The notes under the pieces were generated by a model. It was not told where the DNA came from. It searched no databases and was given only the letters and a program-made list of their open reading frames with translations. A stretch of 64,000 nucleotides of DNA from an uncultured Spirochaetales bacterium. GTDB lineage: Bacteria; Myxococcota_A; UBA9160; JAFDET01. Shown in pieces: positions 24,093-41,668 of the stretch. The DNA is taken from positions 33,516 to 97,515 of the forward strand of contig CAYTZH010000010.1 of assembly GCA_964442285.1 (NCBI GenBank), written 5' to 3'. The position numbers and the translations under genes were made by a program. Positions within the stretch are counted from its first letter, which is position 1. Every line of letters begins with the position of its first letter.

Positions 24093-25090
24093 ACCGCCAG
24101 CTCTTCGAGCACCACCCGGTGCTGGGGCATCGGTTCATCCCCGGACTGCGGGCGCGCGTGGACCACGAAGCCGGCGGCTACCTGATGCGCACGAACGCGT
24201 CGGGCTTCCGCTGCCGACACCCCTTCGAGAAGGCCCCGACACCGGGACGGCGCCGGGTGCTCCTGTTCGGCGACTCCTACACCGCCGGCGACGGCGTGAG
24301 CGACAAGCACCGCTACGGCGAGCGGCTGGAGGCGCTGCGGCCGGACCTGGAGGTCTACAACTTCGGACTCCCCGGCAGCGGCACCGATCAGCAGTACCTG
24401 GCCTGGCGGGAGTTCGCCCGGGACGTCGCCTGCGACGCCGTGGTGCTCGCCGTCATGGTGGAGAACGTCCGCCGGGTGGCCGCGCGCTACCGGCCCTACA
24501 CGGATCGCGACGGCACACCTCGCGTCTTCGCCAAGCCGTGGTTCGAGCTCGACGCCGACGGCGCGCTCACGCTCCGCGGTGTGCCCGTGCGCAAGACGCC
24601 GATCCCGGAGGCGGAGCTGCCCGCGGAAGAGCGGGCGTCGGTGGACGAGAGCGGCCGCGCCGCCTGGCTGCGCCGGGCGGTGAACCGGCTCGGCCCCGAC
24701 GTGAAGGACGTGGCCCAGCGCCTCACCCGCTACCAGCCCCTTCCCGAGTACGACGAAGCCGACCACCCCGCGTGGCGCCTGCTCTCCGAGGTGCTGCGCC
24801 GCTGGGTCGGCGAGATCGAGGCGCCGGTGCTGCTCTTCCCGATTCCCCTCTACCAGTACGTGGAGGAGACCGCCTCGGCCCAGGCCTACCGCGCCCGCTT
24901 CCGCGAGCTGGCGGACGAGACCGGCGCCGCCTTCTGCGATCCCCTGCCCGATCTCCAGCTGCCGCCGCGGCCGGAGCGGCGCGGGTTCCGCTTCCGTGAG
25001 GATCCGCACCCCACACCCGCGGCCCACGCGGTGCTCGCCCGGGCGCTCGCCCGCGGGCTGGCGCCCGTGCTCGAACGGGGCGCCGCGTGA
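24089..25090 (+). CDS. SGNH/GDSL hydrolase (paralog e; no TM anchor)
   Basis: ORF 24089..25090, in an ATGA overlap with the GT4 gene. Block I VLLFGDSYTAGDGV, block II NFGLPGSGTDQQ, block V REDPHPTPAAH. It is coupled by a GTGA overlap to the following carbamoyltransferase. Confidence 0.8.
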   Translation: MNRQLFEHHPVLGHRFIPGLRARVDHEAGGYLMRTNASGFRCRHPFEKAPTPGRRRVLLFGDSYTAGDGVSDKHRYGERLEALRPDLEVYNFGLPGSGTDQQYLAWREFARDVACDAVVLAVMVENVRRVAARYRPYTDRDGTPRVFAKPWFELDADGALTLRGVPVRKTPIPEAELPAEERASVDESGRAAWLRRAVNRLGPDVKDVAQRLTRYQPLPEYDEADHPAWRLLSEVLRRWVGEIEAPVLLFPIPLYQYVEETASAQAYRARFRELADETGAAFCDPLPDLQLPPRPERRGFRFREDPHPTPAAHAVLARALARGLAPVLERGAA

Positions 25091-26922
25091 GCCACCACGT
25101 GCTCGGCATCTCCGCCTTCTACCACGACGCGGCCGCGGCCCTGGTGCGCGACGGCGAGATCGTGGCGTGCGCCCAGGAAGAGCGCTTCACCCGCAAGAAG
25201 CACGATCCGCGCTTCCCGCGCCACGCCATCGCCTACTGCCTCGAGGAGGCCTTCATCGAGAACGACGAGCTGGATGCGGTGGTCTTCTACGACCATCCGC
25301 TGCTCACCCTGGACCGGGTGCTGCAGTCGCTGCTGGCCGTGGCCCCCGAGGGCGAGGACCTGTGGCGCAAGGCGGCCCCGTCGGTGCTCGGGGTGAAGCT
25401 CTTCGTCGACCGCTACGTGCGCGACGTGCTCAAGACCGACGTGCCCGTGCTCTTCGCCCGCCATCACCTCTCCCACGCGGCCAGTGCCTTCTACCCGTCG
25501 CCCTTCGAGCGGGCCGCCGTGCTCACGGTCGACGGCGTGGGCGAGTGGGCCACCACGAGCCTGGCCGTGGGCGAGGGGGAGCACATCGAGGTCCGCAAGG
25601 AGATCCACTACCCCCACAGCCTGGGTCTCCTCTACAGCGCCTTCACCTACTTCTGCGGCTTCAAGGTGAATTCGGGCGAGTACAAGCTGATGGGCCTCGC
25701 GCCCTATGGCGAGCCCCGCTACGCCGACGCGATCCGGCACGAGCTGATCGATACGAGGCCCGACGGCTCGTTCCGCCTGAACCTCGACGCCTTCGGCTTC
25801 CTCGACAGCGACCGCATGACGAACGCCCGCTTCGACGCCCTCTTCGGGGGGCCGCCGCGGGCGCCCGAGTCGCGCATCAGCCGCCGCGAGATGGACCTGG
25901 CGGCGTCGGTGCAGGCGGTCACCGAGGACGTCATGCGCGGTCTCGCGCGCCACGCCCTGGAGCTCGCGGGCTGCCGCGACCTCTGTCTGGCCGGCGGCGT
26001 GGCGCTCAACTGCGTGGCCAACGGCAAGCTGCTGCTCGAGGGCGTGGCCGACCGCGTCTGGATCCAGCCGGCCGCCGGCGACGCGGGGGGCGCCCTGGGC
26101 GCGGCGCTGGTGGGGAGCCTGCGCCGCTTCGGGGCCCGGCGGGTGCGCTCGCCGGGGGGCGGCGACGCCCAGCACGGGAGCTACCTGGGCCCGGCCTGGT
26201 CCGCTGCCGAGATCCGCGCCTTCCTGGACCGCCACGACTACCCCTTCGAGGTCGTGGAGGGCCTCGACGCGCGCGCGGAGCGGGTGGCGGCGGCGCTCGC
26301 CGACGGGCAGGTCGTCGGCTGGATGAGCGGCCGCATGGAGTTCGGGCCGCGCTCGCTCGGCGGCCGCTCGATCCTGGGCGACCCCCGCAACCCCGAGACC
26401 CAGGTGCGCATGAACCGGAAGATCAAGTACCGGGAGTCGTTCCGGCCCTTCGCGCCCAGCGTGCTGGCCGAGCGCTGCGGCGACTGGTTCGAGCTCGACG
26501 CGGAGAGCCCCTACATGCTGCTGGTGGCCCCCGTGCGGGAGGGGCTGCGCAAGTCGCCGCCGCCGCCCGAGACCGACGACGCCGACGACCTGCTCGCCCG
26601 GGTGCGCCAGGCCCGCAGCGAGATCCCGGCGGTCACCCACGTGGACTACAGCGCGCGGGTGCAGACGGTGCACCGGGAGACGAACCCCGCGTACCACGCG
26701 GTGCTGTCCGCCTTCGAGCGCCTCACCGGCTGTCCCGTGGTGGTCAACACCTCCTTCAACGTGCGCGGCGAGCCCATCGTCTGCTCGCCGGAGGACGCCT
26801 ATCGCTGCTTCATGCGCACCGAGATGGACCTGCTGGTGCTCGGCGACTGCCTGCTGCGCAAGGCGGAGCAGCCGCCGATCCTGGACGACGAGTCGTGGAA
26901 GGACGAGTATGAGCTCGACTGA
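25087..26922 (+). CDS. Carbamoyltransferase (NodU/CmcH family), paralog 2
   Basis: ORF 25087..26922, GTG start. Sequence HHVLGISAFYHDAAAALVRDGEIVACAQEERFTRKKHD, then HHLSHAASAFYPSPF and TVDGVGEW, plus the C-terminal domain VNTSFNVRGEPIVCSPEDA. Confidence 0.9.
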   Translation: MSHHVLGISAFYHDAAAALVRDGEIVACAQEERFTRKKHDPRFPRHAIAYCLEEAFIENDELDAVVFYDHPLLTLDRVLQSLLAVAPEGEDLWRKAAPSVLGVKLFVDRYVRDVLKTDVPVLFARHHLSHAASAFYPSPFERAAVLTVDGVGEWATTSLAVGEGEHIEVRKEIHYPHSLGLLYSAFTYFCGFKVNSGEYKLMGLAPYGEPRYADAIRHELIDTRPDGSFRLNLDAFGFLDSDRMTNARFDALFGGPPRAPESRISRREMDLAASVQAVTEDVMRGLARHALELAGCRDLCLAGGVALNCVANGKLLLEGVADRVWIQPAAGDAGGALGAALVGSLRRFGARRVRSPGGGDAQHGSYLGPAWSAAEIRAFLDRHDYPFEVVEGLDARAERVAAALADGQVVGWMSGRMEFGPRSLGGRSILGDPRNPETQVRMNRKIKYRESFRPFAPSVLAERCGDWFELDAESPYMLLVAPVREGLRKSPPPPETDDADDLLARVRQARSEIPAVTHVDYSARVQTVHRETNPAYHAVLSAFERLTGCPVVVNTSFNVRGEPIVCSPEDAYRCFMRTEMDLLVLGDCLLRKAEQPPILDDESWKDEYELD

Positions 26923-27265: not shown

Positions 27266-28504
27266 TCAGCGGCCCGCCAGCCCGGCGAGGAGGCCCGCGA
27301 AGCGGGTGCCGATCACGCGGCGGTCGAAGGCGCCCGCCACGAAGGCGCGGCCGCGGGCGCCGTCGCGGTCGGCCCGGGCGGGGTCGCGCAGGTAGGCGAG
27401 CATGGCGTCCGCCAGGGCGTCGGGATCGCCGGGCGTCACCACGGTTCCCCCCTCGGCCCGCTCCACCGTCTCCGCTCCCTCGCCGCCCGCCTGATACAGG
27501 ACCGGCCGGCCGCTGGCGAGGGACTCGTAGAGCTTCGACGGCACGGTGCTCGTGTCCTTGCGGGGGCGCAGGGTGACCAGCACGCCGGTGGCGCGACGCA
27601 GCAGCGAGAAGACCGCGGCCCGCGGCTGGCGCGGCACGAACACGACCCGATCGAGCGCCCGTCGCGCGACCTGCGCGCGCAAGTCCGCCTCGCGGGGCCC
27701 CTCGCCCACGAGGACGAGCTGGGTCGTGGCGTAGGCCTCGGGATCCTTCTCCCGCAGGCGTGCGAAGGCGTCCACGACGATGTCCAGGCCCTGGGGCGTG
27801 TTCAGGATGCCCGCGTAGGCGAAGTAGCGGCCGTCGGGCGCGAGCGGGGCGAAGTCCGCCGGCAGCGGCTGCTTCGACTCGGCGTCGAAGAGGGCCACGT
27901 CGACCCCGTTGGGGAGCACGTGGATCTTCTCTGGGGAGACGCCGATCTCCACCAGCCGCGCCTTCCAGCCCTCGGTGACGGCGCTGATGGCGTCGGCCGA
28001 GCGGTAGAGGGCGCGCGCGAGGGCCTCGAAGGCCCAGATCAGGACCGGGTTGGTGAGGCGACCGCTCTGCACGATGGCCTCGGGCCAGATGTCGCGCACG
28101 TCGAGCACCATGGGCACCCGGCGGGTCCACGCCGCCACCAGGCCCGGGATGCCCACGCTCGGCGGCGGCGTGGTGGCGACCACCACGTCCGGGCGCAGGC
28201 TCCGGTCGAAGAGCACCCGCAGGCAGGCCGAGAGCAGGAAGCTGGCGTAGGCCAGCGGGCGACCGCCGCGACCCGAACGTGTGTAGATCGGGCAGCGCTT
28301 CACGGTGACGCCGTCGCGGGTCTCGCTGAAGAAGCCCCGGCCGCGGTAGCCCTCGTGGATCGCACCGCCCGGGAAGTGGGGGAGGCCGGTCACCACCGTC
28401 ACGTCGTGGCCGTCGGCGATCCAGCGCTGGGCGAAGTCGTGGAAGCGTCCCGCCGGGGCGCCCATGTCGGGCGGGAAGTACTGCGAGACGACGAGGATCC
28501 TCAT
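27266..28504 (-). CDS. Glycosyltransferase family 4 (WcaI-like)
   Basis: Internal ATG at 28504 of ORF 27266..29977, in an ATGA overlap with the upstream stop. N-terminus MRILVVSQYFPPDMGAPAGRFHDFAQRW is typical of WcaI-type GT4. Also VPSKLYESLASGRPVL. Confidence 0.8.
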   Translation of the reverse strand: MRILVVSQYFPPDMGAPAGRFHDFAQRWIADGHDVTVVTGLPHFPGGAIHEGYRGRGFFSETRDGVTVKRCPIYTRSGRGGRPLAYASFLLSACLRVLFDRSLRPDVVVATTPPPSVGIPGLVAAWTRRVPMVLDVRDIWPEAIVQSGRLTNPVLIWAFEALARALYRSADAISAVTEGWKARLVEIGVSPEKIHVLPNGVDVALFDAESKQPLPADFAPLAPDGRYFAYAGILNTPQGLDIVVDAFARLREKDPEAYATTQLVLVGEGPREADLRAQVARRALDRVVFVPRQPRAAVFSLLRRATGVLVTLRPRKDTSTVPSKLYESLASGRPVLYQAGGEGAETVERAEGGTVVTPGDPDALADAMLAYLRDPARADRDGARGRAFVAGAFDRRVIGTRFAGLLAGLAGR

Positions 28505-29913
28505 TCGTCGACGAGCTCGGGAAGCTGCAGGGGCGCGCAGGGGAAGACCAGGGCGTCGGCCTCGGGAAGGCCGCGCCCGAGGGTCTCGACCAGCGCCGCC
28601 CAGTCGCGGAAGAGGTGCCCGCCGCGGTACTTGCGCCGGAAGCCCCAGTCCGGGAAGCGCTCGGACCAGACCAGGGTCCGGGCGTCGCCGGGCGACGGGG
28701 CGGGCGCGGCCACGTCGGGCGGCAGCCGGCCTTCGCCCGCGGCGAAGGCGGCGTAGGCCAGGTGGTTCATGTGGAAGTAGCAGGTGCGCGCCGCGAGCAC
28801 GGGCGTCGGCAGGGCCCGGGCCAGGCCCCGCAGCCAGGCGGACCAGGCGCGGGGCTCGCGGAGCCAGCCGGGCAGGTTGCGCAGCAGCCGGCGCGGGTCG
28901 ACGCCGCTGCCCATGCCCATGCCGTGGTAGAAGACCCCGTCGCTGGCGGCGTTCACCGCCACGGTCCAGGGCGCGTCGAACTTCTTCGCGATGGTGATGC
29001 TCTTGCCCATCTGGATCGGATCCGTGTCGAGGGGGAAGGCGTTCACGACCACCGCCTGCGCGCGGTCGGCCAGCGCCCGCGGCACGGGCGTGCGGCCGAT
29101 CTCCCGGGCGCGGCGGGCGGCGGCCCGATGGGCCTCCACCGGGTCGCCCGTCCAGAGGCCCGCCAGCTCGGCCCGACCGTTCATCACCGCGCACACCGCG
29201 GCATGCACGCCCACCTGGCGCGCGACGGCCTCGGACCAGGCGCGCCGGTCGAGGCGGCCCCCGGCCGCCTCGAGGCTGCCGACCTCCCGGGGCGGCAGGC
29301 TGCCGTGGAAGTGGGCGATGGTCAGGCGGCCCGCGACCCCGGGCACCACCATCTTGGCGCCGCCGCCGAAGCCGGTCTCGTTGTGGGGGATCACGCCGCC
29401 CACGACGATCCGCAGGTCCGCCTCGAGGAAGTGCCGGTTCAGGTAGACCGGGCCGCCCGCCACGTGTCCCACGAAGCGGACGTCGGGTCCCATGAAGTCG
29501 TGCATGACCACGGCGCCCGCCCGCTCCGCGGCCGGACCGAGCTTGCGCGCGGTCTCGTCGGCGGTCATGGGGCGGTGGGCGGCGGTGCCCACCAGGAGGG
29601 TGACGGCGTCCCCGCCGAGGCCGCCCGCGGCGAGGGCGTCCAGCAGCCGGGGCAGGAAGCGGTGCACGGGCGTCGGCCGGGTGAGGTCGTCCACGGCGAT
29701 CACCGCGCAGCGGCGCCCCCGGGCCAGCTCCGTCAGGGGCGGGCCGCCCACGGGTGCCGCGAACGCCCGCGCGATCGCCGCCTCGTCCGCGGCCGGGGCA
29801 TCCTCCGGGTCGAGCCGATGCAGCCGCCAGCCCGGCGGGAACGCGAGCTCCCGGTCGGGGAGATCGGTCCAGGCGCCGAACGGAAGGGCCACGCGCGGAG
29901 GCTCGGGGCTCAT
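28501..29913 (-). CDS. LarA-like (DUF2088, lactate-racemase N-terminal domain family) protein
   Basis: ORF 28501..29913. Motifs AVDDLTRPTP (the D-x-T-R-P motif), GTAAHRPMT, and GVIPHNETGFGGGAKMVVPG followed by TIAHFH. These correspond to the His/Lys/His positions I recall for the nickel-pincer-nucleotide site of LarA. Confidence 0.65.
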   Translation of the reverse strand: MSPEPPRVALPFGAWTDLPDRELAFPPGWRLHRLDPEDAPAADEAAIARAFAAPVGGPPLTELARGRRCAVIAVDDLTRPTPVHRFLPRLLDALAAGGLGGDAVTLLVGTAAHRPMTADETARKLGPAAERAGAVVMHDFMGPDVRFVGHVAGGPVYLNRHFLEADLRIVVGGVIPHNETGFGGGAKMVVPGVAGRLTIAHFHGSLPPREVGSLEAAGGRLDRRAWSEAVARQVGVHAAVCAVMNGRAELAGLWTGDPVEAHRAAARRAREIGRTPVPRALADRAQAVVVNAFPLDTDPIQMGKSITIAKKFDAPWTVAVNAASDGVFYHGMGMGSGVDPRRLLRNLPGWLREPRAWSAWLRGLARALPTPVLAARTCYFHMNHLAYAAFAAGEGRLPPDVAAPAPSPGDARTLVWSERFPDWGFRRKYRGGHLFRDWAALVETLGRGLPEADALVFPCAPLQLPELVDE

Positions 29914-29919
29914 GCTCCT

Positions 29920-29955
29920 CCTTCGGTCGCCGAGGCGGGCTCGGGGCGCCGAAGG
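29920..29955 (-). promoter_or_regulatory. 5'-UTR stem-loop partly sequestering the Shine-Dalgarno of the LarA-like gene
   Basis: The minus-strand RNA reads CCUUCGG-cgcc-CCGAG-cccgc-CUCGG-cga-CCGAAGG-AGGAGC-AUG. It forms a 7-bp outer stem plus a 5-bp inner stem. The 3' arm CCGAAGG is the 5' part of the SD AAGGAGGAG. Confidence 0.3.
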
Positions 29956-30051
29956 GATACCCCATCCCGGCCCGCACCGCGCCCGCCCCGTGCGCTCCCC
30001 CGCGCCACTTTGCGGGCCACGGCGCGGCCCCGCGCGCTACCCTGCGGCGCC

Positions 30052-31263
30052 ATGGCGCCTCCGGCAGCGAGTCTCCCCGGAGCGGTGGTCTTCACCGTGT
30101 CGCCCACGGGTCTCGCCGTGGCGCGCTCGCTCGCGCCCCGGGGCGTCGCGGTCTGGGGCGTCGACCCCGACCGCTGGGAGATCGGCCACGCTTCCCGCTG
30201 GTTGCGCCGCGATCCGCGCTTCTCCTTCCTGCCGCCGGGCCCGGCGCTGCTGGAGGCCCTGCTGGCGTTCGGGGCCGAGCAGGCCCAGCGGCCGGTGCTC
30301 TTCCTGGGCGGCGACCCCTACATGGACTTCGTCGCCGAGCACCACGAGCGGCTCCGGGATCGCTTCGTGCTGGCCGAATCCATGCGACCCGAGGTCCTGA
30401 GCGTCCTGCTCAACAAACGGACCTTCTACGAGCGTTGTCAGCGTCTGGGGGCGGCCATGCCCACCACCTATTTCCCGAGCGATGTCGCCGAGGCGCGCGC
30501 GGCGTCGGCGGAGCTGCGCTACCCGGCCATCGTGAAGCCCACCCACGCCCACCTCGTGCGCCAGCGACTCGGCGGCAACAAGCTGGTGGAAGTGGGCGAC
30601 GCCGAAGCCCTCGTCGCCTGGTGGGAGCGCTTCCGCGCGTGGGGCACCGACTCGGTGCTGCAGGAGATCATCCCCGGGCCCGAGCGCAACATCATGGTGG
30701 GCGGGGTCTACATGGATGCGCAGCTCCGCTGTCGATCCCTCTTCACCGGCCGGAAGAATCGGCAGTATCCGCCCTGGTACGGCTCCGGCTCCTACATGGA
30801 GGCCTGCTGGTCCGACGAGATCGCCGCGCTCTCCGAGGACCTCCTGCAGCGCCTCGAGTACCGCGGCGTGGCCGGGACCGAGTTCAAGTGGGACGAGCGG
30901 GACGGCGTCTGGAAGCTGATCGAGGTGAATCCGCGTCCCACGCTCTGGTTCGCCCTCACCCGCGCCGCCGGCGTCGACGTGGTCTGGGACGCCTACTGCG
31001 ATCTGCTCGGTCGTCCCAACGAGGTGCACGTCAATTGCCAGGACGATCGCGCCCGCTGGCAGCTCCTGGTCCGCGACCTGGTGAGCAGCTGGCACTTCCT
31101 GCGCCACGAGGACCTCGGCCTGCGGGAGTACTGGCGCACCGTGGTGGATCCCCGCGGCAAGGAGTACGCGGTGCTCTCCCTCCGGGATCCGGGCACCCTG
31201 TTCGCGTATCCTCTGAACAGCTTCTCCAAGTGGTGGAACCACGTCCGTCGGAGATCCTCGTGA
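30052..31263 (+). CDS. ATP-grasp domain ligase (carboxylate-amine ligase-like)
   Basis: Internal ATG at 30052 of ORF 28615..31263. Motifs RYPAIVKPTH, SVLQEIIPGPERN and KLIEVNPRP, matching the ATP-grasp K, E-x-I-x-G and E-x-N elements. Confidence 0.75.
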   Translation: MAPPAASLPGAVVFTVSPTGLAVARSLAPRGVAVWGVDPDRWEIGHASRWLRRDPRFSFLPPGPALLEALLAFGAEQAQRPVLFLGGDPYMDFVAEHHERLRDRFVLAESMRPEVLSVLLNKRTFYERCQRLGAAMPTTYFPSDVAEARAASAELRYPAIVKPTHAHLVRQRLGGNKLVEVGDAEALVAWWERFRAWGTDSVLQEIIPGPERNIMVGGVYMDAQLRCRSLFTGRKNRQYPPWYGSGSYMEACWSDEIAALSEDLLQRLEYRGVAGTEFKWDERDGVWKLIEVNPRPTLWFALTRAAGVDVVWDAYCDLLGRPNEVHVNCQDDRARWQLLVRDLVSSWHFLRHEDLGLREYWRTVVDPRGKEYAVLSLRDPGTLFAYPLNSFSKWWNHVRRRSS

Positions 31264-32234
31264 GCGTCGGCAGCGATCCGATCCCGAACATGATGACCGT
31301 CGACGTGGAGGACTGGTTCCACATCCTCGACGCCGACGAGGCGCCGGACCGGGAGGGCTGGGCCGCGCTCGAGTCGCGGGTCGTCGCCAACACCGAGCGC
31401 CTGCTCGCGCTCTTCGCGGCGGCGGAGGTGCGCACCACCTGCTTCATCGTCGGCTGGGTGGCCTGGCGCTGCCCGGAGCTCGTGCGGCGGATCGCCGACG
31501 CCGGCCACGAGGTGGCCTCCCACAGCTTCTGGCACGAGATCCTTCACCGCCACGACCGCGCCTCCCTGGCCCGCGACCTCGAGCGCTCCCGGAAGCTGCT
31601 GCAGGACCTCTCCGGGCAGCCGGTGCGGGGCTTCCGCGCCCCCGGCGCCTCGGTCACGGCGGAGACGGCCTGGGCCTTCGACGTGCTGGTGGAGCAGGGC
31701 TTCGCCTACGACGCCTCGATCTGCCCCGGCGTGTCGAGCCACGGCGGCTTCCGCTCGCCCTTCCCGGGGCCCCACCGGGTGCGCTGCGAGGCCGGCGAGC
31801 TGGTGGAGATCCCGTCCTCCACCGCCGAGCTGGGCGGGCGCCGGATCCCCTACGCCGGCGGCGGCTACCTGCGCCTGTTCCCGTACCTGCTGATCCGGGG
31901 CGCCCTGCGTCGGGACAACCGCGCCGGTCGCCCCGCCAACGTGTACCTGCATCCGCGGGAGATCGATCCGGCGCAGCCGCGCATGGCGCTGCCCGCCAAG
32001 CGCCGCTTCAAGTACTACGTGGGCCTGCGCAGCACCGAGGAGAAGGTGCGGGCGCTGCTGCGCGACTTCCGCTGGACCTCGTGCGCGGACTGGATCGCGC
32101 GCTTCGGGCCGGCCGAGGGGACCGACGTCCTGGACGTGCGCGCGACCGCGGCGGAGCACCCGCCCGCGCCCGATCCGGCGCGCGTACCGCCCGCGCCCCC
32201 GCTCGAGGCCTACGCCGAGAGCGTGGCCTCGTAG
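31260..32234 (+). CDS. XrtA/PEP-CTERM-locus-type polysaccharide deacetylase (CE4/DUF3473-like)
   Basis: Part of ORF 29754..32234. The GTG at 31260 overlaps the ATP-grasp stop (GTGA); alternative ATGs at 31290 and 31293. Motifs MMTVDVEDWFH, VASHSFWHE (H-x-x-x-H) and VRGFRAPGAS. Confidence 0.8.
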   Translation: MSVGSDPIPNMMTVDVEDWFHILDADEAPDREGWAALESRVVANTERLLALFAAAEVRTTCFIVGWVAWRCPELVRRIADAGHEVASHSFWHEILHRHDRASLARDLERSRKLLQDLSGQPVRGFRAPGASVTAETAWAFDVLVEQGFAYDASICPGVSSHGGFRSPFPGPHRVRCEAGELVEIPSSTAELGGRRIPYAGGGYLRLFPYLLIRGALRRDNRAGRPANVYLHPREIDPAQPRMALPAKRRFKYYVGLRSTEEKVRALLRDFRWTSCADWIARFGPAEGTDVLDVRATAAEHPPAPDPARVPPAPPLEAYAESVAS

Positions 32235-34858
32235 ACGCCCGTCACCCCGTCCACCGCCTGCAGGGCCACCTCGCGCACCCGGCGGCGCACGCCGTCGGCG
32301 GCGAGCGCCGCCGGCACGTCGACGCTGGCCCGTCGGTAGGGGAGGGAGGAGCGCAGCCGCAGGGTGTCGCCCGCACGCTCGGCGGTGATGCCGCTCGCCG
32401 CGCCGTCGACGGCGTCCGCCGCCACCACCAGCTCCCAGGCCGCGTCCCGCGCGTCCACCCGGAAGCGCAGCGGGCCGGGCTCCACCGGCGAGCGCCGCGC
32501 CGGCCAGCGCTCGCCGTCGCGCTCGATCCAGGCCTCGCGGACCCGTCCGAAGAGCCAGGCCGGGGGCAGCACCGTCACCTCCCGGGGCTGCTCCGCCGAC
32601 ACCGGGATGTCGCGGCCCACCAGCCGCAGCACGTAGCGATAGGTCTCCTGCCCCGCGTCGGGCGCCGCCAGCTCCACCACCTCCTCGTCGCGCCAGGCCA
32701 GCAGCCGGGGCGTGTAGCGCTCGTACCAGGCGAGCACCGCGTCCCGGGTGCGGGAGAAGCGTACCTCCGGGTGGGCGCGGGCCACGTGGGCCAGGTGGTC
32801 GCGGATCGTGGCCCAGTCGCCGTAGCCCGCCTCGAGGGAGTCCCACTGCCGACCCATGCGCCAGTTAATGAACTTGTCGTGGGTCATGGCGCAGATCACG
32901 TGCACGCCGGGGAGCGCGCCGCCCTCCGGCGTGCGCAGGGCGTCGATCCGACCGTCGACGTAGCCGTTCAGCACGCCCACGTCCGAGAGGAAGTCGGCCT
33001 CGATGTTGAACTCGGCGCGGATCTCCAGGGCCCGCATGCGCTCGGGGCCGGCCGCCGGCTGGCGCGGATCGCCGTCGACCGGGTAGGTGGCCCGGGCCAT
33101 CGGCCGGTGGTAGAGCCGCGGCTTCGGCACGTCGCTGTCCGCCAGCAGCTCGAGCCGCTGGAGCAGGGCGAGGGAGCGCGCGCGCTCGGGGGCGTCCTCG
33201 CCGAAGTCGAAGGAGCCGGCGCGGAAGCAGGTGACCCGGAAGCGCGGGTCGCCCAGGCGCCCGAGGGCCTCGAGCGCGCCGATGCCGCGCCAGGTGGCCC
33301 AGGCGCGGGAGCCCTCCAGCGCGGCGTCGCCCAGGGCGGGGAAGGCGCGGCTCCAGAACCCGCGCTGGGGCAGCGGCGTCTCGAGGAACGCCGCGGGCGT
33401 GGTCACCCGGTCCGACTCGGGATCGAAGCCGTGGCAGAAGACGTCGGTGCCCGGGTCGTGGAAGGCGTGGCAGTGCAGGCCCAGGTCGTTGCCGTTCGCC
33501 ACCGCCTCGATCAGGTGCTCGGCGCTGGCGTCGGCGACCGCCTGCCAGGTGTCGCCGCGGGACTGGCGCGCGGCCCAGGGCACCAGGTGGAGGGAGCCCA
33601 CGTCCACCATGTGGGTCCAGGCCGCGCCCTGCTCGTTGGCCACCTGCTCGGCGAAGCGCGACTTGTCCACCAGGGTCTTGCGCGCCGCCTCGGCGTCGGT
33701 GGCCTCGCGCTCGTCGTAGAGCTCGTGGTCCTCGGTGATCGTGTAGTGGATCTCGCCAGGCTCCCGGTCGGGAACGCCGAACGCCAGCGACAGCCGCTCC
33801 ACCCGGGCTCCCGAGGCCAGCGCCAGCTCCAGGCGCCACGGCCGACCGCCGGCCACGGCGTCGGGCCGGAGAGCGGTCACGCGCACCGTGAGCGACGTGT
33901 TGCCCTCCGCCACCGGAATCCGCCCCCGCGGCTCGCAGAGGAGTCCGTGGCCGCAGGGCTCGAGCACGTGGAGCCCGGCCGCACCCCCGGAGACCTGGAC
34001 CCCGACCTCGATCTCGACGGATTCGCCGACCTCGAGCGCGGCCGGGCGGGTGCCGGAGACCGACAGCCTCAGGTGGGCCACGTGCCCGCTCCCGGACAGG
34101 CGCTCCAGACCGACGATGGCCGCGTCGCACCCGGGGTCGAGGGCCAGGGCGCGGCCCCAGGCCTCCCGGGCGCGCTCCGGCGCCGCGTGCTCGCAGGCGT
34201 CGCCCAGCTCGGACCAGACGGCGACGTCCAGGGGGTCCAGGTCCGCGGCGCGCTCCAGGGCGCCCTCCGCCAGGCTCGCGACGCCGGAGGCCAGGGCGCG
34301 GCGGCCGAGGGCGAGCCAGAGGTCCGCGCGACCGCCGTCGAGCCGGCCGGCCTCGTCGAGCAGGCGCTCCTCCCGCGCGCGGTCGCCGGCCCGGGCCGCC
34401 GCGGCGGCCAGGTGGAGCAGGCCGTCCACCCGGCTGCCCAGGGGCGCGTCCGACTTGCGCAGCGCGGCCTCGGCGTCGCCGAAGCGCCCCTCGGCCAGGA
34501 GCTTCTCGAGGTCCTCGGAGGGGCCGCCGCCCTGGCGACGCGAGCGGCGCCAGGCCAGGGTGGTGCGCAGGGCGCCGAGCACCGAGGTCTCGAGGGTGTT
34601 GTGGGCGAGGTGCTCGAAGGCGTCCCGGTGCCGGGCCGCCGCGCCCGCATCGCCCCGGGCCTCGGCGCGGGCGGCGAGCAGCCGGTGGGCGTCCCGCGCC
34701 CCGGGGTGGATGCGCAAGGCGGCCCAGGCGGCCCCGGGCAGCCAGGACCCCACCCGCACGAGGCCCGCCGCGGTCAGCTCCCGCGCCGCCCGCCGCAGCA
34801 CGAAGGCGTCGTGGGCCGTGACCTGGCGCAGCAGCAGCGCGAGCTCGCGTCGCTTCAC
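32210..34858 (-). CDS. 882-aa multidomain hypothetical protein: N-terminal TPR-like region, middle beta-sandwich-like region, C-terminal divergent deacetylase-like region
   Basis: Part of ORF 32210..35383. The GTG at 34858 overlaps the upstream stop (GTGA). There is no signal peptide or TM segment. TPR-like helices occupy roughly residues 1-300. C-terminal motifs IHYTITEDHELY, LGLHCHAFHD and CFRAGSFDFG parallel TVDVEDWF, SHSFWHE and FRAPGAS of the neighbouring deacetylase. The fold assignment is an inference. Confidence 0.55.
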   Translation of the reverse strand: MKRRELALLLRQVTAHDAFVLRRAARELTAAGLVRVGSWLPGAAWAALRIHPGARDAHRLLAARAEARGDAGAAARHRDAFEHLAHNTLETSVLGALRTTLAWRRSRRQGGGPSEDLEKLLAEGRFGDAEAALRKSDAPLGSRVDGLLHLAAAAARAGDRAREERLLDEAGRLDGGRADLWLALGRRALASGVASLAEGALERAADLDPLDVAVWSELGDACEHAAPERAREAWGRALALDPGCDAAIVGLERLSGSGHVAHLRLSVSGTRPAALEVGESVEIEVGVQVSGGAAGLHVLEPCGHGLLCEPRGRIPVAEGNTSLTVRVTALRPDAVAGGRPWRLELALASGARVERLSLAFGVPDREPGEIHYTITEDHELYDEREATDAEAARKTLVDKSRFAEQVANEQGAAWTHMVDVGSLHLVPWAARQSRGDTWQAVADASAEHLIEAVANGNDLGLHCHAFHDPGTDVFCHGFDPESDRVTTPAAFLETPLPQRGFWSRAFPALGDAALEGSRAWATWRGIGALEALGRLGDPRFRVTCFRAGSFDFGEDAPERARSLALLQRLELLADSDVPKPRLYHRPMARATYPVDGDPRQPAAGPERMRALEIRAEFNIEADFLSDVGVLNGYVDGRIDALRTPEGGALPGVHVICAMTHDKFINWRMGRQWDSLEAGYGDWATIRDHLAHVARAHPEVRFSRTRDAVLAWYERYTPRLLAWRDEEVVELAAPDAGQETYRYVLRLVGRDIPVSAEQPREVTVLPPAWLFGRVREAWIERDGERWPARRSPVEPGPLRFRVDARDAAWELVVAADAVDGAASGITAERAGDTLRLRSSLPYRRASVDVPAALAADGVRRRVREVALQAVDGVTGVYEATLSA

Positions 34859-36258
34859 GCCAGGCGGCCCGTCTCGAGCTGCGACACCACGGCGCGGAAC
34901 TTCCCGTTGGGAAGCCGCGGGATGGCGTCGACCACCTCGTAGGCGATCTCGATCTCGTGACCCAGGCGGCTGCGGAACTCGGCGTCGAGCTCCTTGCGGG
35001 CCGCGTCGTCGAAGCCCGCCCGCGGGACCAGGCGCACCACGATCCGGTCCCGGCTGGACTGCACGATCTGCGCCTCCTTCACCTCGAGGGCGTCCTTGAA
35101 GACGTGGTCCATCCGCCCGATGCGGCGGCCATCGGGGGTCACCACGAAGTCCTCGATGCGCCCGTCGATCCGCTCCAGGAGCGGGCGCGCCCGACCACAG
35201 GGACAGCTCGCCCGCTTGAGCAGCGTGGCCACGTCGCCGGTGCGGTAGCGCAGCAGCGGCATGGCGCGATTGGCGAAGCCGGTGGAGATCACCTCGCCGC
35301 GCACCCAGTCCTCGGTCTCCTCGTGGGGATCGATCTCCACCACGCCGAACTCGGTGTCGACGTGGTAGTGGCCGGCCGGGCACTGCAGCACCGATACGCT
35401 GAACTCGGAGTTGCCGTAGCGGTCGGCCACGACGGCGCCGGTCGCCTGGGCGATCCGATCGCGATGGAAGTCCAGCAGCGTCTCCGACGACGGGAACACG
35501 GCGCGGGGCGCCGCGGCGCCGAGGTCGATCCCGCGGTCGAGCAGGTGCTGGGAGATCAGTCCCAGCGAGGAAGGATAGCCCTGCCAGAAGCGGTAGCCGG
35601 GTCGCTGCAGCTCCCGGGCGTAGGCGTCCAGGAACTCGGCGCGCATGTGGTAGAGCGAGAAGATCATCCGGGAGCGCGCCCGGTCGTAGCGCCAGAACGG
35701 CGGGCGGGCCTGGGTGAAGGGGACCGCCATCTGGCCGCCGAAGGCGGCGAAGCGGTCGCCGAGCTTCACGCCGTACCAGCCCCGCTGGCGCCAGATCACG
35801 CCGTACTCCCAGCCCAGCGCCTCCCGGGTGTGGAAGAGCCGCAGGGCCGTGCCGGTGGTGCCGCTCGAGTGCCCGCCGATGATCTGGCGCTCCGGGATGC
35901 CCTCGCTCTTCAGCGCCTCGGCGTTCTCCCGCACCGTCTCCTTGGGGAGGAAGGGGACCTTGGCCAGATCGTCGCTGCCGCGGATCGAGGCCGGATCGAT
36001 GCCCTCCCGCGTGAACAGGGTGCGGTAGTAGGGCACCGTGCGAGCCGCCCAGAGGATCATCTCCCGCAGCCGCCGGTCCTGGTCCTCGCGGATCTGCTCC
36101 GGGGAGTTGAAGTCGGTCCGCTCGAGCTCGTCGAGGATGCGGCGGAACGGTGCGCCGAAGCGGTGCCGGTAGCTGCGCCAGCCCCAGGCCGCCACCGCCA
36201 GCTCCTGGGCGGCGATGGGAAGCCGGTCGTACAGGCGGTGCATGCGGCTTCGCGCCAT
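34855..36258 (-). CDS. CapK / F390-synthetase / phenylacetate-CoA-ligase-like adenylate-forming enzyme (paralog 2, intact P-loop)
   Basis: ORF 34855..36258. P-loop GGHSSGTTGTAL, motif LLRYRTGDVATL, and C-terminal LPNGKFRAV. Confidence 0.75.
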   Translation of the reverse strand: MARSRMHRLYDRLPIAAQELAVAAWGWRSYRHRFGAPFRRILDELERTDFNSPEQIREDQDRRLREMILWAARTVPYYRTLFTREGIDPASIRGSDDLAKVPFLPKETVRENAEALKSEGIPERQIIGGHSSGTTGTALRLFHTREALGWEYGVIWRQRGWYGVKLGDRFAAFGGQMAVPFTQARPPFWRYDRARSRMIFSLYHMRAEFLDAYARELQRPGYRFWQGYPSSLGLISQHLLDRGIDLGAAAPRAVFPSSETLLDFHRDRIAQATGAVVADRYGNSEFSVSVLQCPAGHYHVDTEFGVVEIDPHEETEDWVRGEVISTGFANRAMPLLRYRTGDVATLLKRASCPCGRARPLLERIDGRIEDFVVTPDGRRIGRMDHVFKDALEVKEAQIVQSSRDRIVVRLVPRAGFDDAARKELDAEFRSRLGHEIEIAYEVVDAIPRLPNGKFRAVVSQLETGRLA

Positions 36259-36262: not shown

Positions 36263-38410
36263 TCAGACCGCGGAGGGCGCTCCGCTGGCGAGCGAGGCCA
36301 GGGCGGCCAGGCAGGCCCGGGTGGTGGCGGCCGACTGCTCGAAGGGGATCGGCATCGGGCCGCCCTCGCGCACGGCCGCGAGGAAGCGCCGCATCTCCTC
36401 GGCGAAGCCCTTGTCCTGGTTGGCCGAGCGGTCCTTCTGGATGCGACCCCCGCGGACCCGCTCGAGGGTGCGGAAGTCGTCGAGCACCGCCAGCCGCCCT
36501 TCGCCGAAGACCTCGAGCCGCTCCTTCGGGTAGCGGCTGTCGCCGAGCGCCGTGTAGACCACGCTGCCCAGCGAGCCGTCGGCGAAGCGCAGGCTGATCG
36601 CGACGTTGTCGTCGCCGCGATAGCGGTCGTCGCCCGCGATGCTCTCGGCGTGCACGCGGACCGGCGGCGCGCCCGCCAGGAACTGCAGCAGGTCGACGAA
36701 GTGGCAGACCTCGCCGCGGATGCGGCCCCCGCCCTCGGCGGGGTCGTGGATCCAGTGGTCGCCGGGGATGAAGCCCGCGTTGATGCGGTACTGCATCACC
36801 AGGGGATGGGTGCGGTCGGCGAAGTGCTCCGCGAGCTTCGCCACCAGGGGCGCGAAGCGGCGGTTGAAGCCCACCATCACGTCGCCGCGCGCGCCGGCGC
36901 GGGCGGCTTCGATGGCCGCCAGCTCCTCCTCGCACAGGCAGAGGGGCTTCTCGGTGAAGACGTGCTTGCCCGCTTCGAGGCCGCGCCGGACCAGGGGCGC
37001 GTGGAGGTCGTGGCGGGTGAGCACGAACACCGCGTCCACGTCCGGATGCGCCACCACCTCCTCGGTCTCGGCGGTGGCGAGCCGGAAGCCGTGCTGCTCG
37101 CCGATGCGGCGGGCGGTCATGCCGCCGGCGGAGGCGATGGCGACGTTCTCCGTCCCGCCCGCCTCCTGGAGGGCGGGCAGCAGCACCGACTGCCCGAAGC
37201 TCCCGGCGCCCACCAGGCCCACCCGCACGCGGTCCCGCCCCAGGGGCTCGGCGGACAGCGCCACCGACGACGCCGGCGGCCTGGGGGCCTCGTCGTCGGC
37301 GTCGTACTCGAGCACGACCCCCAGGTACGGCTCGCGGCCCCCGGAGATCAGGCCGTAGGCGTCGAGGGCCGCGTCGATCCCGAAGCGGTGCGTGACCAGC
37401 CGCCGCGTGTCCAGACGGCCGTCCGCCGCCAGGTCCAGGAAGGCCTCGAGGTTGCGCTGCTCGGTCCAGCGCACGTGGCCCAGGGGGTAGTCGACGCCGC
37501 GCTCCTCGTAGTCCGGGTCGTAGCGTCCGGGGCCGTAGGACATGGACATCCGCAGGTCGAGCTCCTTGCGGTAGTAGGTCGAGCGGGGGACCTGCATCCC
37601 CACCAGGCCGACCACCACCACCCGGCCGCGCAGGCGGGAGATCTCGCCGGCGACCTCCAGCGGCCCGGCGTCCGGCGTCGACGCGGCCACGATCACCGCG
37701 TCCATGCCCTGGCCCAGGGAGAACTGCGCGGCGGCGGTCTCGAGGTCGTCGGAGACGGCGCGGTGGGCCCCGAGCTCCTCGGCCAGCTTGGCCCGCTCGC
37801 CGTTCGGATCGAAGCCCAGCACCCGGCAGCCGCCCGCCCGCAGCAGCTGCACCGTGAGCTGTCCGATGAGCCCCAGGCCGATCACCGCCACCCGCTCGCC
37901 CAGGGTGGGCTCGGCCTGCCGGACTCCTTGGAGCGCGATGGCGCCCACGGTGGCGAACGCGGCGCTCTCCATGTCCACGCCGTCGGGAATCCGCACGACC
38001 AGGTTGCGCGGGACGTAGTTGTAGTCGGCGTGGTTGGCGTAGCCGGCGCCGGCACAGGCGACGCGGTCGCCCACCTGCAGCTCGGAGACCTCCTCGCCCA
38101 CGCCGACCACGATCCCGGCGCTCGAGTAGCCCAGGGGGATCGGCGTCTCGAGCTTGGTGCGCACCTTCTGGAGCGTGTTCATCACGCCCTGCTTGCGGGC
38201 CGTGGTGATCACCTTGCGCACCAGGTCCGGGCGGGCCCGGGCCTTGGCCACCAGGCTCTTGCGGGCCAGGTCCACCACCATCTTCTCGGTGCCGGCCGAC
38301 ACCAGGGAACGCACCGTGCGCACGAGCACGCCCTGGGGCCGCAGCGCGGGCGGCGGGACGTCCTCCACCTTCATCTCGCCGGTCCGGTACGACTGGATCA
38401 GCTGGCGCAT
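36263..38410 (-). CDS. Bi-domain oxidoreductase: N-terminal zinc-type alcohol dehydrogenase (MDR) fused to a C-terminal Gfo/Idh/MocA domain
   Basis: Internal ATG at 38410 of ORF 36263..38866. The MDR part has GYSSAGIVVGVGEEVSELQVGDRVA and VAVIGLGLIGQL. The Gfo/Idh/MocA part has VRVGLVGAGSFGQSVLLPAL and GKHVFTEKPLC. Confidence 0.8.
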   Translation of the reverse strand: MRQLIQSYRTGEMKVEDVPPPALRPQGVLVRTVRSLVSAGTEKMVVDLARKSLVAKARARPDLVRKVITTARKQGVMNTLQKVRTKLETPIPLGYSSAGIVVGVGEEVSELQVGDRVACAGAGYANHADYNYVPRNLVVRIPDGVDMESAAFATVGAIALQGVRQAEPTLGERVAVIGLGLIGQLTVQLLRAGGCRVLGFDPNGERAKLAEELGAHRAVSDDLETAAAQFSLGQGMDAVIVAASTPDAGPLEVAGEISRLRGRVVVVGLVGMQVPRSTYYRKELDLRMSMSYGPGRYDPDYEERGVDYPLGHVRWTEQRNLEAFLDLAADGRLDTRRLVTHRFGIDAALDAYGLISGGREPYLGVVLEYDADDEAPRPPASSVALSAEPLGRDRVRVGLVGAGSFGQSVLLPALQEAGGTENVAIASAGGMTARRIGEQHGFRLATAETEEVVAHPDVDAVFVLTRHDLHAPLVRRGLEAGKHVFTEKPLCLCEEELAAIEAARAGARGDVMVGFNRRFAPLVAKLAEHFADRTHPLVMQYRINAGFIPGDHWIHDPAEGGGRIRGEVCHFVDLLQFLAGAPPVRVHAESIAGDDRYRGDDNVAISLRFADGSLGSVVYTALGDSRYPKERLEVFGEGRLAVLDDFRTLERVRGGRIQKDRSANQDKGFAEEMRRFLAAVREGGPMPIPFEQSAATTRACLAALASLASGAPSAV

Positions 38411-41492: not shown

Positions 41493-41668
41493 CTAGAAGA
41501 GGGCGTAGATGAACGGCGCGACTGCAGAGCCCTCGGTCAGGACGATGAGCACCGAGAGCAGCAGCATCACCACCACGATCGGGCCGAGCCACCACTTCTT
41601 GCGGACCTTCATGAAGGTCCAGAGCTCGCCGAAGATCCCCAGCCGGCTTCCACCCGCCTTCGCCATGT
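41493..41668 (-). CDS. SxtK/DUF5989-like small membrane protein; N-terminus out of frame (G6 run) or expressed as a 39-aa form by ATGA-coupled reinitiation
   Basis: Below the ORF-track size cutoff. The frame ending at TAG 41495..41493 reads (G)IFGELWTFMKVRKKWWLGPIVVVMLLLSVLIVLTEGSAVAPFIYALF. The only in-frame ATG is at 41612 (39 aa). A well-placed ATG at 41668 (RBS GGAGAG) is in another frame and stops after 19 codons at TGA 41611..41609. A C6 run (G6 on the coding strand) lies at 41637..41642. Confidence 0.55.

Follow-up and report, generated by a model that had tools for sequence, protein, structure and literature searches.

The window analysed here, a single stretch of 64 kb of DNA with Myxococcota MAGs as its closest relatives, carries a gene for an ATP-grasp carboxylate-amine ligase whose end overlaps the start of a gene for a CE4/DUF3473 polysaccharide deacetylase, a pairing that is widespread yet unstudied. 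In our preferred reading, the ATP-grasp ligase occupies, beside this same deacetylase family, the slot held by a FemAB-like transferase in other lineages. To judge from their sequences, the two enzymes probably act on an amino sugar, putting a different acyl group in the place of its acetyl group; the best explanation in full, in which two soluble cytoplasmic enzymes, translated together from a conserved cassette, would remodel an N-acetylated amino sugar of an EPS precursor, is one that we rate about evenly balanced. While the logic of deacetylation followed by acylation is already known, its ATP-grasp/deacetylase version is new.

An ATP-grasp ligase gene overlaps a deacetylase gene

The features on which the analysis turns are the following, numbered from the first nucleotide of the window.

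28501-29892, reverse strand: LarA-like gene (nickel-pincer type 2-hydroxyacid racemase/epimerase family; Lar_N match), divergent from the ATP-grasp gene
30052-31263, forward strand: ATP-grasp carboxylate-amine ligase, 403 aa (from translation, motifs and AlphaFold2 fold)
31250-31253, forward strand: GGAG of the coupling site, followed by a 6-nt spacer and by the GTG start at 31260 over the TGA stop at 31261-31263 (read from the sequence)
31260-32234, forward strand: CE4 (NodB-type) plus DUF3473 polysaccharide deacetylase of the TIGR03006 subfamily, 324 aa (from profile matches)
39903-40565, reverse strand: EpsI-family exosortase partner (TIGR02914), a separate ORF with a 4-nt overlap with the exosortase gene
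40562-41356, reverse strand: exosortase, XrtA/XrtD-like (from XrtA and XrtD model scores)

The GTGA overlap claimed in an earlier note on this DNA is real, since the deacetylase frame starts with the GTG at 31260-31262, across the stop codon of the ligase gene, with GGAG upstream. Alternative deacetylase starts are found at the ATG codons 31290 and 31293, from which the intergenic gap would be only 26 nt. Both reading frames are backed by GC3 frame plots, and the ligase start at ATG 30052 agrees with the N-termini of homologues better than GTG 30085 (database entry P0001). A promoter and terminator scan of positions 29700-32500 returned no match, as expected at 72% GC.

Both proteins retain the residues expected of active enzymes

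Translation of the ligase gene yields AIVKP (30526-30540), QEIIPG (30661-30678) and IEVNPR (30919-30936), and that of the deacetylase gene TVDVEDWF (31296-31319), SHSFWHE (31518-31538) and FRAPG (31632-31646); these are all of the motifs named in the earlier note, each present in the protein to which it had been assigned. K162 of AIVKP, Q204 and E205 of QEIIPG, and E291-x-N293-x-R295 of IEVNPR are invariant across 32 homologues of the ligase, and the residue signature of the ATP-grasp superfamily, an ATP-binding Lys, a Mg-binding E-x-N and a catalytic Arg, is complete. From the invariant Lys and E-x-N-x-R residues, the ligase is predicted to be catalytically competent. No transmembrane segment was predicted in it (maximum KD19 1.44). 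An AlphaFold2 model (pLDDT 92.3) matched biotin carboxylase, PurK and CPS in Foldseek (E ~1e-15, TM ~0.6, 10-18% identity), and the three-domain ATP-grasp fold is confirmed at the level of this predicted model. These structural matches are generic and uninformative on substrate; likewise, PDB searches by sequence and fold returned generic ATP-grasp and CE4 matches alone, with no substrate clue.

Profile scores of the ligase were 47.7 bits for the PRK12767-type model of NCBIfam, below its cut-off of 271, 23.3 bits for PF15632 of Pfam, below its threshold of 29.1, and 20.6 bits against 19.8 for PF02786, no single stretch being significant alone. Homologues numbered 234, with 47-100% identity among the matches listed. 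Some homologues carry the JGI label 'D-aspartate ligase', and the group corresponds to COG3919 or 'D-aspartate ligase'-like proteins, which lack a dedicated Pfam or NCBIfam model. Our analysis delimits a family of ATP-grasp proteins, thousands strong (2,099 representatives at E<=1e-30), for which there is no curated model. Members of the family are often misannotated as carbamoyl-phosphate synthase.

The deacetylase scored 298.2 bits against the 'XrtA system polysaccharide deacetylase' model TIGR03006 and passed the curated cut-off of 276.2, which bears out its assignment in the earlier note to the exosortase-associated subfamily. A PF01522 NodB-homology domain (73.5 bits, residues 42-138) is followed C-terminally by DUF3473 (PF11959; 130.1 bits, residues 153-279). 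In 20 homologues the CE4 motif residues (D, H-x-x-x-H and R-x-P type) show no variation, from which the enzyme is expected to be catalytically competent. Neither a transmembrane segment nor a signal peptide was predicted, pointing to a cytoplasmic location. O-deacetylation is also possible for CE4 enzymes.

The gene pair lies in an exosortase-type locus

The exosortase gene of the window is located 8.3 kb from the deacetylase gene, so that the two paired genes belong to an EPS locus of the exosortase type. The exosortase scored 210.1 bits against the XrtA model (TIGR03109; cut-off 208), and higher, 232.6 bits, against the N-terminal half of the XrtD model, whose C-terminal half matched the split EpsI-family ORF at 165.7 bits, the cut-off of the XrtD model being 400. 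The EpsI-family ORF itself scored 96.6 bits against TIGR02914 (cut-off 42.8). Genes resembling PrsT, PrsR, an ATPase, a chain-length protein and a Tyr kinase are also present in the window, most of them scoring slightly under the respective cut-offs. The deacetylase thus shares its locus with an exosortase and markers of the PEP-CTERM system, which is the context called for by membership in TIGR03006. No PEP-CTERM/VPLPA-CTERM-like C-terminus was detected when the window was searched by regular expression.

The LarA-like protein matched Lar_N at 140.6 bits and malate/lactate racemase models at 150-168 bits, all of the latter under their cut-offs, and aligned with the malate racemase Mar2 (6d6z; E 2e-30), from which it does not differ at the Lys and His positions. 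A LarA-like gene adjoins or lies near the ATP-grasp gene in seven further loci (L005, L008, L010, L015, L090, L100 and L102). It is a frequent but not universal accessory, possibly supplying the acyl donor, and its presence is a hint that this donor is a 2-hydroxy acid and not an amino acid. Among the called genes of the window, no racemase of the Asp/Glu type was detected.

Fusions and remote relatives of the ligase

Members of the ATP-grasp family occur fused to PF01522 deacetylases (P0302, P0374, P0284), to a DegT sugar aminotransferase (P0253) and to GT2 or GT4 (P0241, P0268, P0347, P0331), the closest of these fusions being that with GT2 (P0241, 585 bits). On Priestia plasmids, remote relatives are accompanied by a GT4 and by a PIG-L sugar de-N-acetylase, which has an unrelated fold; the cluster was read on pBM600, and the ATP-grasp homologue was found in 37 Priestia plasmid records. 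In the cultured bacterium Pacificitalea manganoxidans DY25, the genes for an ATP-grasp relative and a CE4-like protein, with the locus tags CBW24_RS18040 and CBW24_RS18045, share 4 nt.

These partners bear on what the ligase may join. Since any carboxylate can be the activated partner in ATP-grasp chemistry, the enzyme might instead amidate a sugar carboxylate, activating a uronic acid of the repeat unit at its C6 carboxyl and joining it to an amino acid or to the amine exposed by the deacetylase on an adjacent residue, in the manner of the glucuronamide ligase of the Campylobacter jejuni capsule. The window encodes a UDP-glucose 6-dehydrogenase, a TviC-like uronic acid epimerase and WecB, and a UDP-sugar dehydrogenase is also encoded in L006. 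Such amidation nevertheless appears unlikely to us: a dehydrogenase like that of the window (g46) was detected near the pair in the window and L006 only, the constant partner of the ligase generates an amine and is not a sugar dehydrogenase, and the fusions of the ligase are with CE4 deacetylases and a DegT aminotransferase, none being with a UDP-sugar-type dehydrogenase. The PIG-L de-N-acetylases that partner the remote relatives likewise speak for an amine.

The Priestia plasmids, with their PIG-L deacetylase, GT4, ATP-grasp and kinase-like genes in a BshA/BshB/ligase arrangement, raise the further alternative that the pair makes or modifies a small glycoside metabolite and not a polymer, through a bacillithiol- or mycothiol-like sequence of glycosylation, de-N-acetylation and ligation of an acid to the amine. 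The pair of L007 indeed has no obvious polysaccharide locus around it, its neighbors being aminotransferase, TauD and MFS transporter genes instead of EPS genes. However, the Priestia ATP-grasp proteins are only ~26% identical to that of the window, the closest fusion partner is the GT2 of P0241, the pair sits in glycosyltransferase-rich polysaccharide clusters in the window and most other loci, and an exosortase directly adjoins it in four distinct loci. We regard a small glycoside as an improbable target, and retain an EPS amino sugar as the preferred one.

The pairing is conserved across orthologous loci

Deduplication of ATP-grasp orthologues with enough sequence downstream left 25 loci. 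In 21 of these, the next gene downstream, in the same orientation, was that for the deacetylase; it lay within 2 kb in 23, and was absent from the remaining two (L095 and L102). Recurring in 21 independent orthologous loci, the adjacency is beyond chance, and the pairing on whose conservation in related genomes the earlier note had staked its model is indeed kept. Paired loci span Myxococcota, Verrucomicrobiia and other MAGs; the long assemblies GCA_054814625.1 and OZ245002.1 hold the pair or a variant of it with ATP-grasp. In the gene calls of L001, L004, L005, L006 and L007 the two genes overlap by 1-4 nt or are separated by gaps of 24 and 115 nt. Most of the remote ATP-grasp relatives are without a deacetylase.

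The order ATP-grasp, deacetylase, exosortase was found in four distinct loci (L004, L100/L101, L124). Exosortases adjoining the pair score higher as XrtD than as XrtA, and that of L124 is a true XrtD (600 bits; cut-off 400). Strict specificity of the pair for XrtA was considered and rejected, since the pairs of L006 and L007 lie outside exosortase loci. In a neighbor-joining tree of 113 sequences, deacetylases linked to ATP-grasp ligases grouped together and apart from those linked to FemAB. With its deacetylases in a cluster of their own, the pair looks like an old, co-inherited and co-evolving cassette rather than the result of a recent swap in a fixed XrtA module.

EPS loci often contain members of either family, and the accessory genes around the pair differ between loci, as they might if the two enzymes had different substrates and were adjacent merely through sharing a mobile block of polysaccharide genes. 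This we consider very unlikely: adjacency, order and strand are constant while the surroundings change, stop/start codon overlaps recur, the deacetylase phylogeny follows the partner, and covalent fusions of both domains exist. A literature search on DUF3473, exosortase or PEP-CTERM together with ATP-grasp yielded nothing relevant on the gene pair.

An ATP-grasp ligase in the possible place of a FemAB-like transferase

The earlier note had seen no FemAB-like ORF near the pair, an absence that extends to the whole 64-kb window. NCBIfam searches of its 51 gene calls, with a threshold of E<=1e-5 (E<=1e-3 in the case of ten calls), returned no match to TIGR03019. Nor was any obtained when the entire 64 kb, translated in six frames, was searched at E<=1e-3 with a TIGR03019-derived HMM, built from family members of which three were checked against NCBIfam. 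Unannotated genes of 352-662 aa located 5' of the ATP-grasp gene in L004-L006 were rejected as hidden Fem-like candidates, as they showed no family matches.

The earlier note had named FemAB as a common companion of the deacetylase. It is a classical neighbor: the deacetylase gene is followed by FemAB in three Betaproteobacteria, Rubrivivax, Thauera and Rhodoferax (PMC3684757), and FemAB adjoins the same deacetylase family in ten FemAB-type loci, none of which has the ATP-grasp gene, with an overlap of 4 nt in all three FemAB loci for which gene calls were available. It is not, however, obligatory. Neither FemAB nor ATP-grasp was present in 66 of 80 sampled deacetylase loci, where the commonest neighbor was a methyltransferase, and the exposed amine thus need not be re-acylated.

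Mutual exclusion of the two partners was what the earlier note had further proposed to look for in XrtA loci. It holds to the extent that FemAB loci lack the ATP-grasp gene and that no bona fide TIGR03019 gene was found within ~10 kb of an ATP-grasp orthologue or pair; but Fem-like GNATs are fused or adjacent to remote ATP-grasp relatives (P0348, L128, L154 and Azospirillum), indicating that the two classes are not intrinsically exclusive. An iterated exosortase HMM detected exosortases beside ATP-grasp loci alone and none within 10 kb of the sampled FemAB loci, so that the comparison of the same position next to XrtA rests on a literature table (PMC3684757). Displacement of FemAB within an XrtA module is thus supported in part only: the absence of FemAB and the conserved pairing are in its favor, whereas the many deacetylase loci with neither partner, the separate cluster of deacetylases, the pairs outside exosortase loci, the XrtD-like exosortases and the Fem-like GNATs beside remote relatives are not.

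Proposed mechanism and its implications

The substrates, order of steps and product given here are those that we infer from sequence. In the first step, as expected from its family, the CE4/DUF3473 deacetylase would strip the N-acetyl group from a GlcNAc- or ManNAc-type residue of a nucleotide-linked or undecaprenyl-linked intermediate, freeing the amine. In the second, suggested by ATP-grasp chemistry and by the company that the family keeps, the ligase would convert a free carboxylic acid into an acyl phosphate and transfer it to this amine, so that an N-acyl amino sugar results. Candidates for the acid are an amino acid, which is what D-aspartate ligase uses, and a 2-hydroxy acid provided by way of the neighboring LarA-like racemase. 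N-deacetylation followed by ATP-dependent N-acylation, the model put forward in the earlier note, is thus kept as the best one, with the amino-acid donor weakened by the LarA-like neighbor.

Exosortase/PEP-CTERM systems are widespread in environmental bacteria. The conserved cassette makes a clear and cheap biochemical prediction, deacetylation then ATP-dependent N-acylation, which together with the parallel in FemAB-linked loci renders the chemistry of exosortase-associated polysaccharides testable. As a long shot, FemAB or the ATP-grasp ligase might build an aminoacyl branch on a de-N-acetylated EPS sugar, the amine of which would serve as the exosortase nucleophile for PEP-CTERM/VPLPA-CTERM proteins, mirroring the peptidoglycan cross-bridges, built by Fem or Aslfm, to which sortase substrates are attached. 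Were this so, the cassette would pinpoint the acceptor that has long been sought for exosortase sorting.

Comparison with known systems

The nearest parallel is the pair formed by TIGR03019 FemAB and TIGR03006, in which the same deacetylase family has an immediate, often overlapping neighbor in EPS loci, and in which, as here, that neighbor belongs to a class that forms amide bonds to an amine acceptor. The two partnerships differ in that FemAB has a GNAT fold and relies on aminoacyl-tRNA activation, whereas the window ligase, of unrelated fold, is an ATP-grasp enzyme expected to proceed through an acyl phosphate; in the separate clustering of their deacetylases; and in gene order, ATP-grasp being upstream of the deacetylase and FemAB downstream of it in the loci whose order is given by gene calls or by the table of PMC3684757.

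On one and the same peptidoglycan cross-bridge amine, Fem transferases and ATP-grasp D-Asp/D-Glu ligases alternate (PMC2655667, PMC2922099). Aslfm, the D-aspartate ligase of Enterococcus faecium and an alternative to Fem transferases (PMC2655667, PMC2922099), is likewise a carboxylate-amine ligase of the ATP-grasp class. Its amine acceptor, like the one proposed here, is nucleotide-sugar-linked: in peptidoglycan precursors it attaches D-Asp to the epsilon-amine of Lys. The comparison was made through a Latilactobacillus curvatus ligase encoded beside a racemase and aspS, a probable D-Asp ligase and orthologue of the Aslfm type, and the similarity is remote and confined to the core (25% identity over 225 residues, BLASTP 4e-23, hhalign 98.8%). 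The Aslfm type is partnered by an amino-acid racemase and has a peptide Lys as acceptor, whereas the window ligase is partnered by a sugar deacetylase, with a LarA-type hydroxyacid racemase homologue adjoining, and would have a sugar amine as acceptor in a Gram-negative EPS context, its surroundings being EPS genes and not cell-wall genes. Among curated families and solved structures, the best profile match to the ligase is to PRK12767-type proteins (PDB 2pn1), at 47.7 bits against the cut-off of 271. Entry 2pn1 is a structural-genomics deposit named only as a carbamoylphosphate synthase large subunit (split gene), and is not known to have an assigned function.

Finally, NodB/NodA, LpxC/LpxD, MshB/MshC and BshB/BshC are deacetylate-then-acylate pairs that follow the same logic as that proposed here, a GlcNAc amine being unmasked and a new acyl or aminoacyl group attached. 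Their second enzymes come from a different family in each pair, being acyltransferases or aaRS-like ligases, and none is known to be an ATP-grasp ligase. As for the first enzymes, NodB is a cytoplasmic CE4 enzyme, as the window deacetylase is predicted to be.

A coupled ATP-grasp ligase/deacetylase gene pair

Because the window has a G+C content of 72%, genes were called by codon-position GC rather than from raw ORF lists. The two genes of interest are:

30052-31263, + strand, ATP-grasp ligase, 403 aa (AIVKP, QEIIPG, IEVNPR)
31260-32234, + strand, deacetylase, 324 aa (TVDVEDWF, SHSFWHE, FRAPG)

The GTGA overlap proposed in the earlier note was read at 31260-31263, the deacetylase frame being opened by a GTG at 31260, with a GGAG six bases 5′ of it, and the ligase gene ending in a TGA at 31261-31263. 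The deacetylase gene might instead begin with an ATG at 31290 or 31293, and coupling would remain tight in either case. Neither protein contains a hydrophobic segment fitting a signal peptide or transmembrane helix, which predicts a cytoplasmic location for both.

The deacetylase (PF01522 + DUF3473) scored 298.2 bits against TIGR03006, the XrtA system polysaccharide deacetylase family (curated NCBIfam cut-off, 276.2), and thus belongs, as suspected, to the subfamily marking PEP-CTERM/XrtA loci. Among solved structures it had only remote matches, which are peptidoglycan and chitin deacetylases of family CE4. For the ligase, neither NCBIfam nor Pfam offers a dedicated curated family; its best NCBIfam match was to a PRK12767-type model (47.7 bits vs a cut-off of 271), and Pfam ATP-grasp models matched marginally. 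A confident AlphaFold2 model built from 32 homologues (pLDDT 92.3) superposed on biotin carboxylase, PurK and carbamoyl-phosphate synthetase (E ~1e-15, TM ~0.6, 10-18% identity), and the family shows no variation in the ATP-binding Lys or the E-x-N-x-R magnesium/catalytic motif. Modelled fold and motifs together indicate a competent ATP-grasp enzyme. An exhaustive HMMER search returned 12,009 family representatives at E<=1e-3 and 2,099 at E<=1e-30; some JGI records name members "predicted ATP-grasp superfamily ATP-dependent carboligase" or "D-aspartate ligase". Tandem duplications of about 800 aa occur among the representatives (P0247, P0256, P0263).

Polysaccharide and exosortase context

The pair lies within a large polysaccharide locus of the window, which also encodes:

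28501-29892, - strand, LarA-like racemase homologue
32210-34858, - strand, TPR-like protein of 882 aa, no family
34855-36243, - strand, CapK/PaaK-like adenylating enzyme
36263-38410, - strand, ADH_zinc + GFO/IDH/MocA fusion oxidoreductase
38398-39888, - strand, DUF362 protein
39903-40565, - strand, EpsI, separate ORF, 165.7 bits on the XrtD model
40562-41356, - strand, exosortase, separate ORF, 4-nt overlap with EpsI

The first five genes form a block found with the pair in six loci from other genomes or metagenomes (L005, L008, L015, L088, L090, L103) and without the ATP-grasp gene in L016 and L074. The exosortase barely passed the XrtA cut-off (210.1 vs 208 bits) and its XrtD score was higher (232.6 bits). 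Taken together, exosortase and EpsI (39903-41356, -) reached 398 bits on the model of the fused XrtD, whose cut-off is 400, and resemble an XrtD-like system that is intermediate or split. They are followed by PrsT-, PrsR-, export-, chain-length-, ATPase- and Tyr-kinase-like genes, the majority scoring slightly under their own XrtA-system cut-offs.

The locus further holds three NodU/CmcH-type carbamoyltransferase genes (1-1581, -; 25087-26922, +; 41677-43416, -), the third flanked by tiny ORFs of 57 and 68 aa (41493-41666 and 43466-43672, -) whose counterparts in L015 and L016 are 78-93% and 48-57% identical, respectively. Several SGNH/GDSL-like genes are also present (e.g. 24089-25090).

Conservation of the pairing

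In five of five ATP-grasp homologues from different assemblies (57-100% identical), the gene directly downstream, in the same orientation, encoded PF01522 + DUF3473. Metagenomes scanned with the ATP-grasp alignment contributed another 80 loci. Among 25 orthologous loci (near-duplicates removed, at least 590 bits to the ATP-grasp HMM, downstream sequence available), the deacetylase was directly adjacent in 21 and within 2 kb in 23; adjacency dropped among relatives below ~40% identity. The observation of the earlier note is confirmed, and the pairing is real, ancient and widespread; nothing describing such a cassette was found in the literature or curated families.

An exosortase comes next after the pair in a Verrucomicrobiia genome. 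ATP-grasp > deacetylase > exosortase (> EpsI) is the gene order of L004, L100/L101 and L124, the last with a bona fide fused XrtD (600 bits). The exosortases adjacent to the pair are XrtD-like. The polysaccharide locus of L006 contains the pair and lacks an exosortase within 10 kb, and the L007 pair lies outside any obvious exopolysaccharide cluster.

FemAB and ATP-grasp as partners of the deacetylase

The ligase had been proposed as a possible replacement for a FemAB-family protein described as a common companion of this deacetylase. That companionship is borne out by published gene data on Rubrivivax, Thauera and Rhodoferax, tabulated with a FemAB-related gene immediately after the PEP-CTERM deacetylase (PMC3684757). 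No FemAB-like ORF is visible across the 64-kb window, again as stated: none of the 51 called proteins matched TIGR03019 (FemAB family XrtA/PEP-CTERM system-associated protein) in NCBIfam scans, and a FemAB HMM found nothing in the six-frame translation at E<=1e-3. One neighbour cluster supplied the seven full-length sequences for this HMM; NCBIfam confirmed the three that were checked as bona fide TIGR03019 (296-346 bits; cut-off 260).

Scanning 185,579 species genomes with a deacetylase alignment yielded 80 loci. ATP-grasp was directly upstream in six, all found in Myxococcota-like, delta- or gammaproteobacterial MAGs and with deacetylases at least 62% identical to that of the window; TIGR03019 was adjacent in seven, both occurred together in none of the 80, and 66 had neither. 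The commonest neighbour, ahead of FemAB and ATP-grasp, was a SAM-dependent methyltransferase of ~220 aa directly downstream (median ~22 nt) in 38 of the 80 (e.g. L018, 10923-11603, and 37 others in the L017-L087 set). TIGR03006-like deacetylases may, this suggests, generally be paired with an amine-modifying enzyme.

Three more loci, searched from FemAB, read GT2 > deacetylase > FemAB with 4-nt overlaps and lack ATP-grasp. In FemAB-type loci (L172, 6210-10674; L173, 7822-12268; a JGI contig of sample 3300075153) the core is fixed and continues after FemAB into a PF01663 phosphodiesterase-like gene, with the 4-nt overlap at the deacetylase/FemAB junction; L172 has a DegT gene between FemAB and PF01663.

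In a neighbor-joining tree of 113 deacetylases, the ATP-grasp-linked proteins grouped together, apart from FemAB-linked and unpartnered ones; a few unpartnered deacetylases fell inside their cluster, including L011, with a weak GNAT match upstream, and L016. In L016 (10804-12063, Myxococcota chromosome OZ245002.1), an ATP-grasp gene of a different subfamily (PF02655) directly follows, rather than precedes, a deacetylase 61% identical to the window's, in what looks like an independent second pairing. Remote ATP-grasp relatives adjoin or are fused to Fem-like GNATs (L128, L154, P0348, Azospirillum), none of which reaches the TIGR03019 cut-off, the Azospirillum one being known from annotation only.

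The displacement proposal stands in part. Next to this deacetylase family, ATP-grasp takes the genomic position that FemAB has elsewhere, and it does not co-occur with true TIGR03019 within about 10 kb; strict non-orthologous displacement is, however, weakened because most deacetylase loci lack both partners, the deacetylases of the cassette cluster on their own, the cassette also occurs outside exosortase loci, and remote relatives are GNAT-linked. ATP-grasp is one of several alternative deacetylase partners, not a simple swap in a fixed XrtA module.

A possible two-step modification of an amino sugar

Family representatives (P-numbers) are fused to CE4 deacetylase domains (P0302, P0374, P0284), a DegT-type sugar aminotransferase (P0253), GT2/GT4 glycosyltransferases (P0241, P0268, P0347, P0331; the GT2 fusion P0241 being the best match of all at 585 bits), a methyltransferase (P0307), a D-2-hydroxyacid dehydrogenase (P0358) and a PF13480 Fem-like GNAT (P0348). 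Two independent associations come from cultured organisms. On Pacificitalea manganoxidans plasmid pDY25-F, a 33%-identical homologue overlaps a divergent CE4-like gene by 4 nt within an O-antigen-like locus. Priestia megaterium QM B1551 pBM600 (L169, NC_014031, 4028-8222) reads PIG-L deacetylase > GT4 > ATP-grasp > EcKL/APH-like kinase. Here the companion of the ligase is a sugar de-N-acetylase with a second, unrelated fold; the arrangement is reminiscent of bacillithiol or mycothiol synthesis, ATP-grasp standing where the ligase would be. The homologue (~26% identity) is on 37 Priestia plasmid records, usually annotated "carbamoyl-phosphate synthase"; the cluster was read on pBM600 only.

Since the recurring partners are enzymes making a sugar amine, we favour the deacetylase product as the ligase nucleophile. 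Uronic-acid amidation by the ligase is a chemically valid rival for which the window encodes a UDP-glucose dehydrogenase and a TviC-like epimerase, but the association of the pair with these genes is not conserved. The best-supported reading, entirely inferential and given roughly even odds, retains the proposed sequence: the deacetylase would de-N-acetylate an amino sugar, which the ligase would then N-acylate at the expense of ATP.

An amino-acid donor has a competitor. The window ligase matches a Latilactobacillus curvatus "carboxylate--amine ligase" (BLASTP 4e-23, 25% identity; hhalign 98.8%) whose gene has an amino-acid racemase/aspS on one side and an aspartate-metabolism gene on the other, as expected for a D-aspartate ligase. 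The LarA-like gene is divergent from the ligase gene in the window and adjacent or close to it in seven more loci; its product can be aligned to malate and lactate racemases, with the cofactor Lys as well as the His residues retained. This neighbour and the P0358 fusion make a 2-hydroxy acid, rather than an amino acid, a possible donor. Speculatively, if N-acylation does take place, the aminoacyl/acyl branch could be the exosortase acceptor.

In peptidoglycan cross-bridges, Fem transferases (aminoacyl-tRNA-dependent, GNAT fold) add Gly and L-amino acids, and ATP-grasp ligases add D-Asp/D-Glu to an amine that Fem transferases also use (PMC2655667, PMC2922099). The proposed alternation therefore has a real precedent, and the cassette is a variant on an already known logic.
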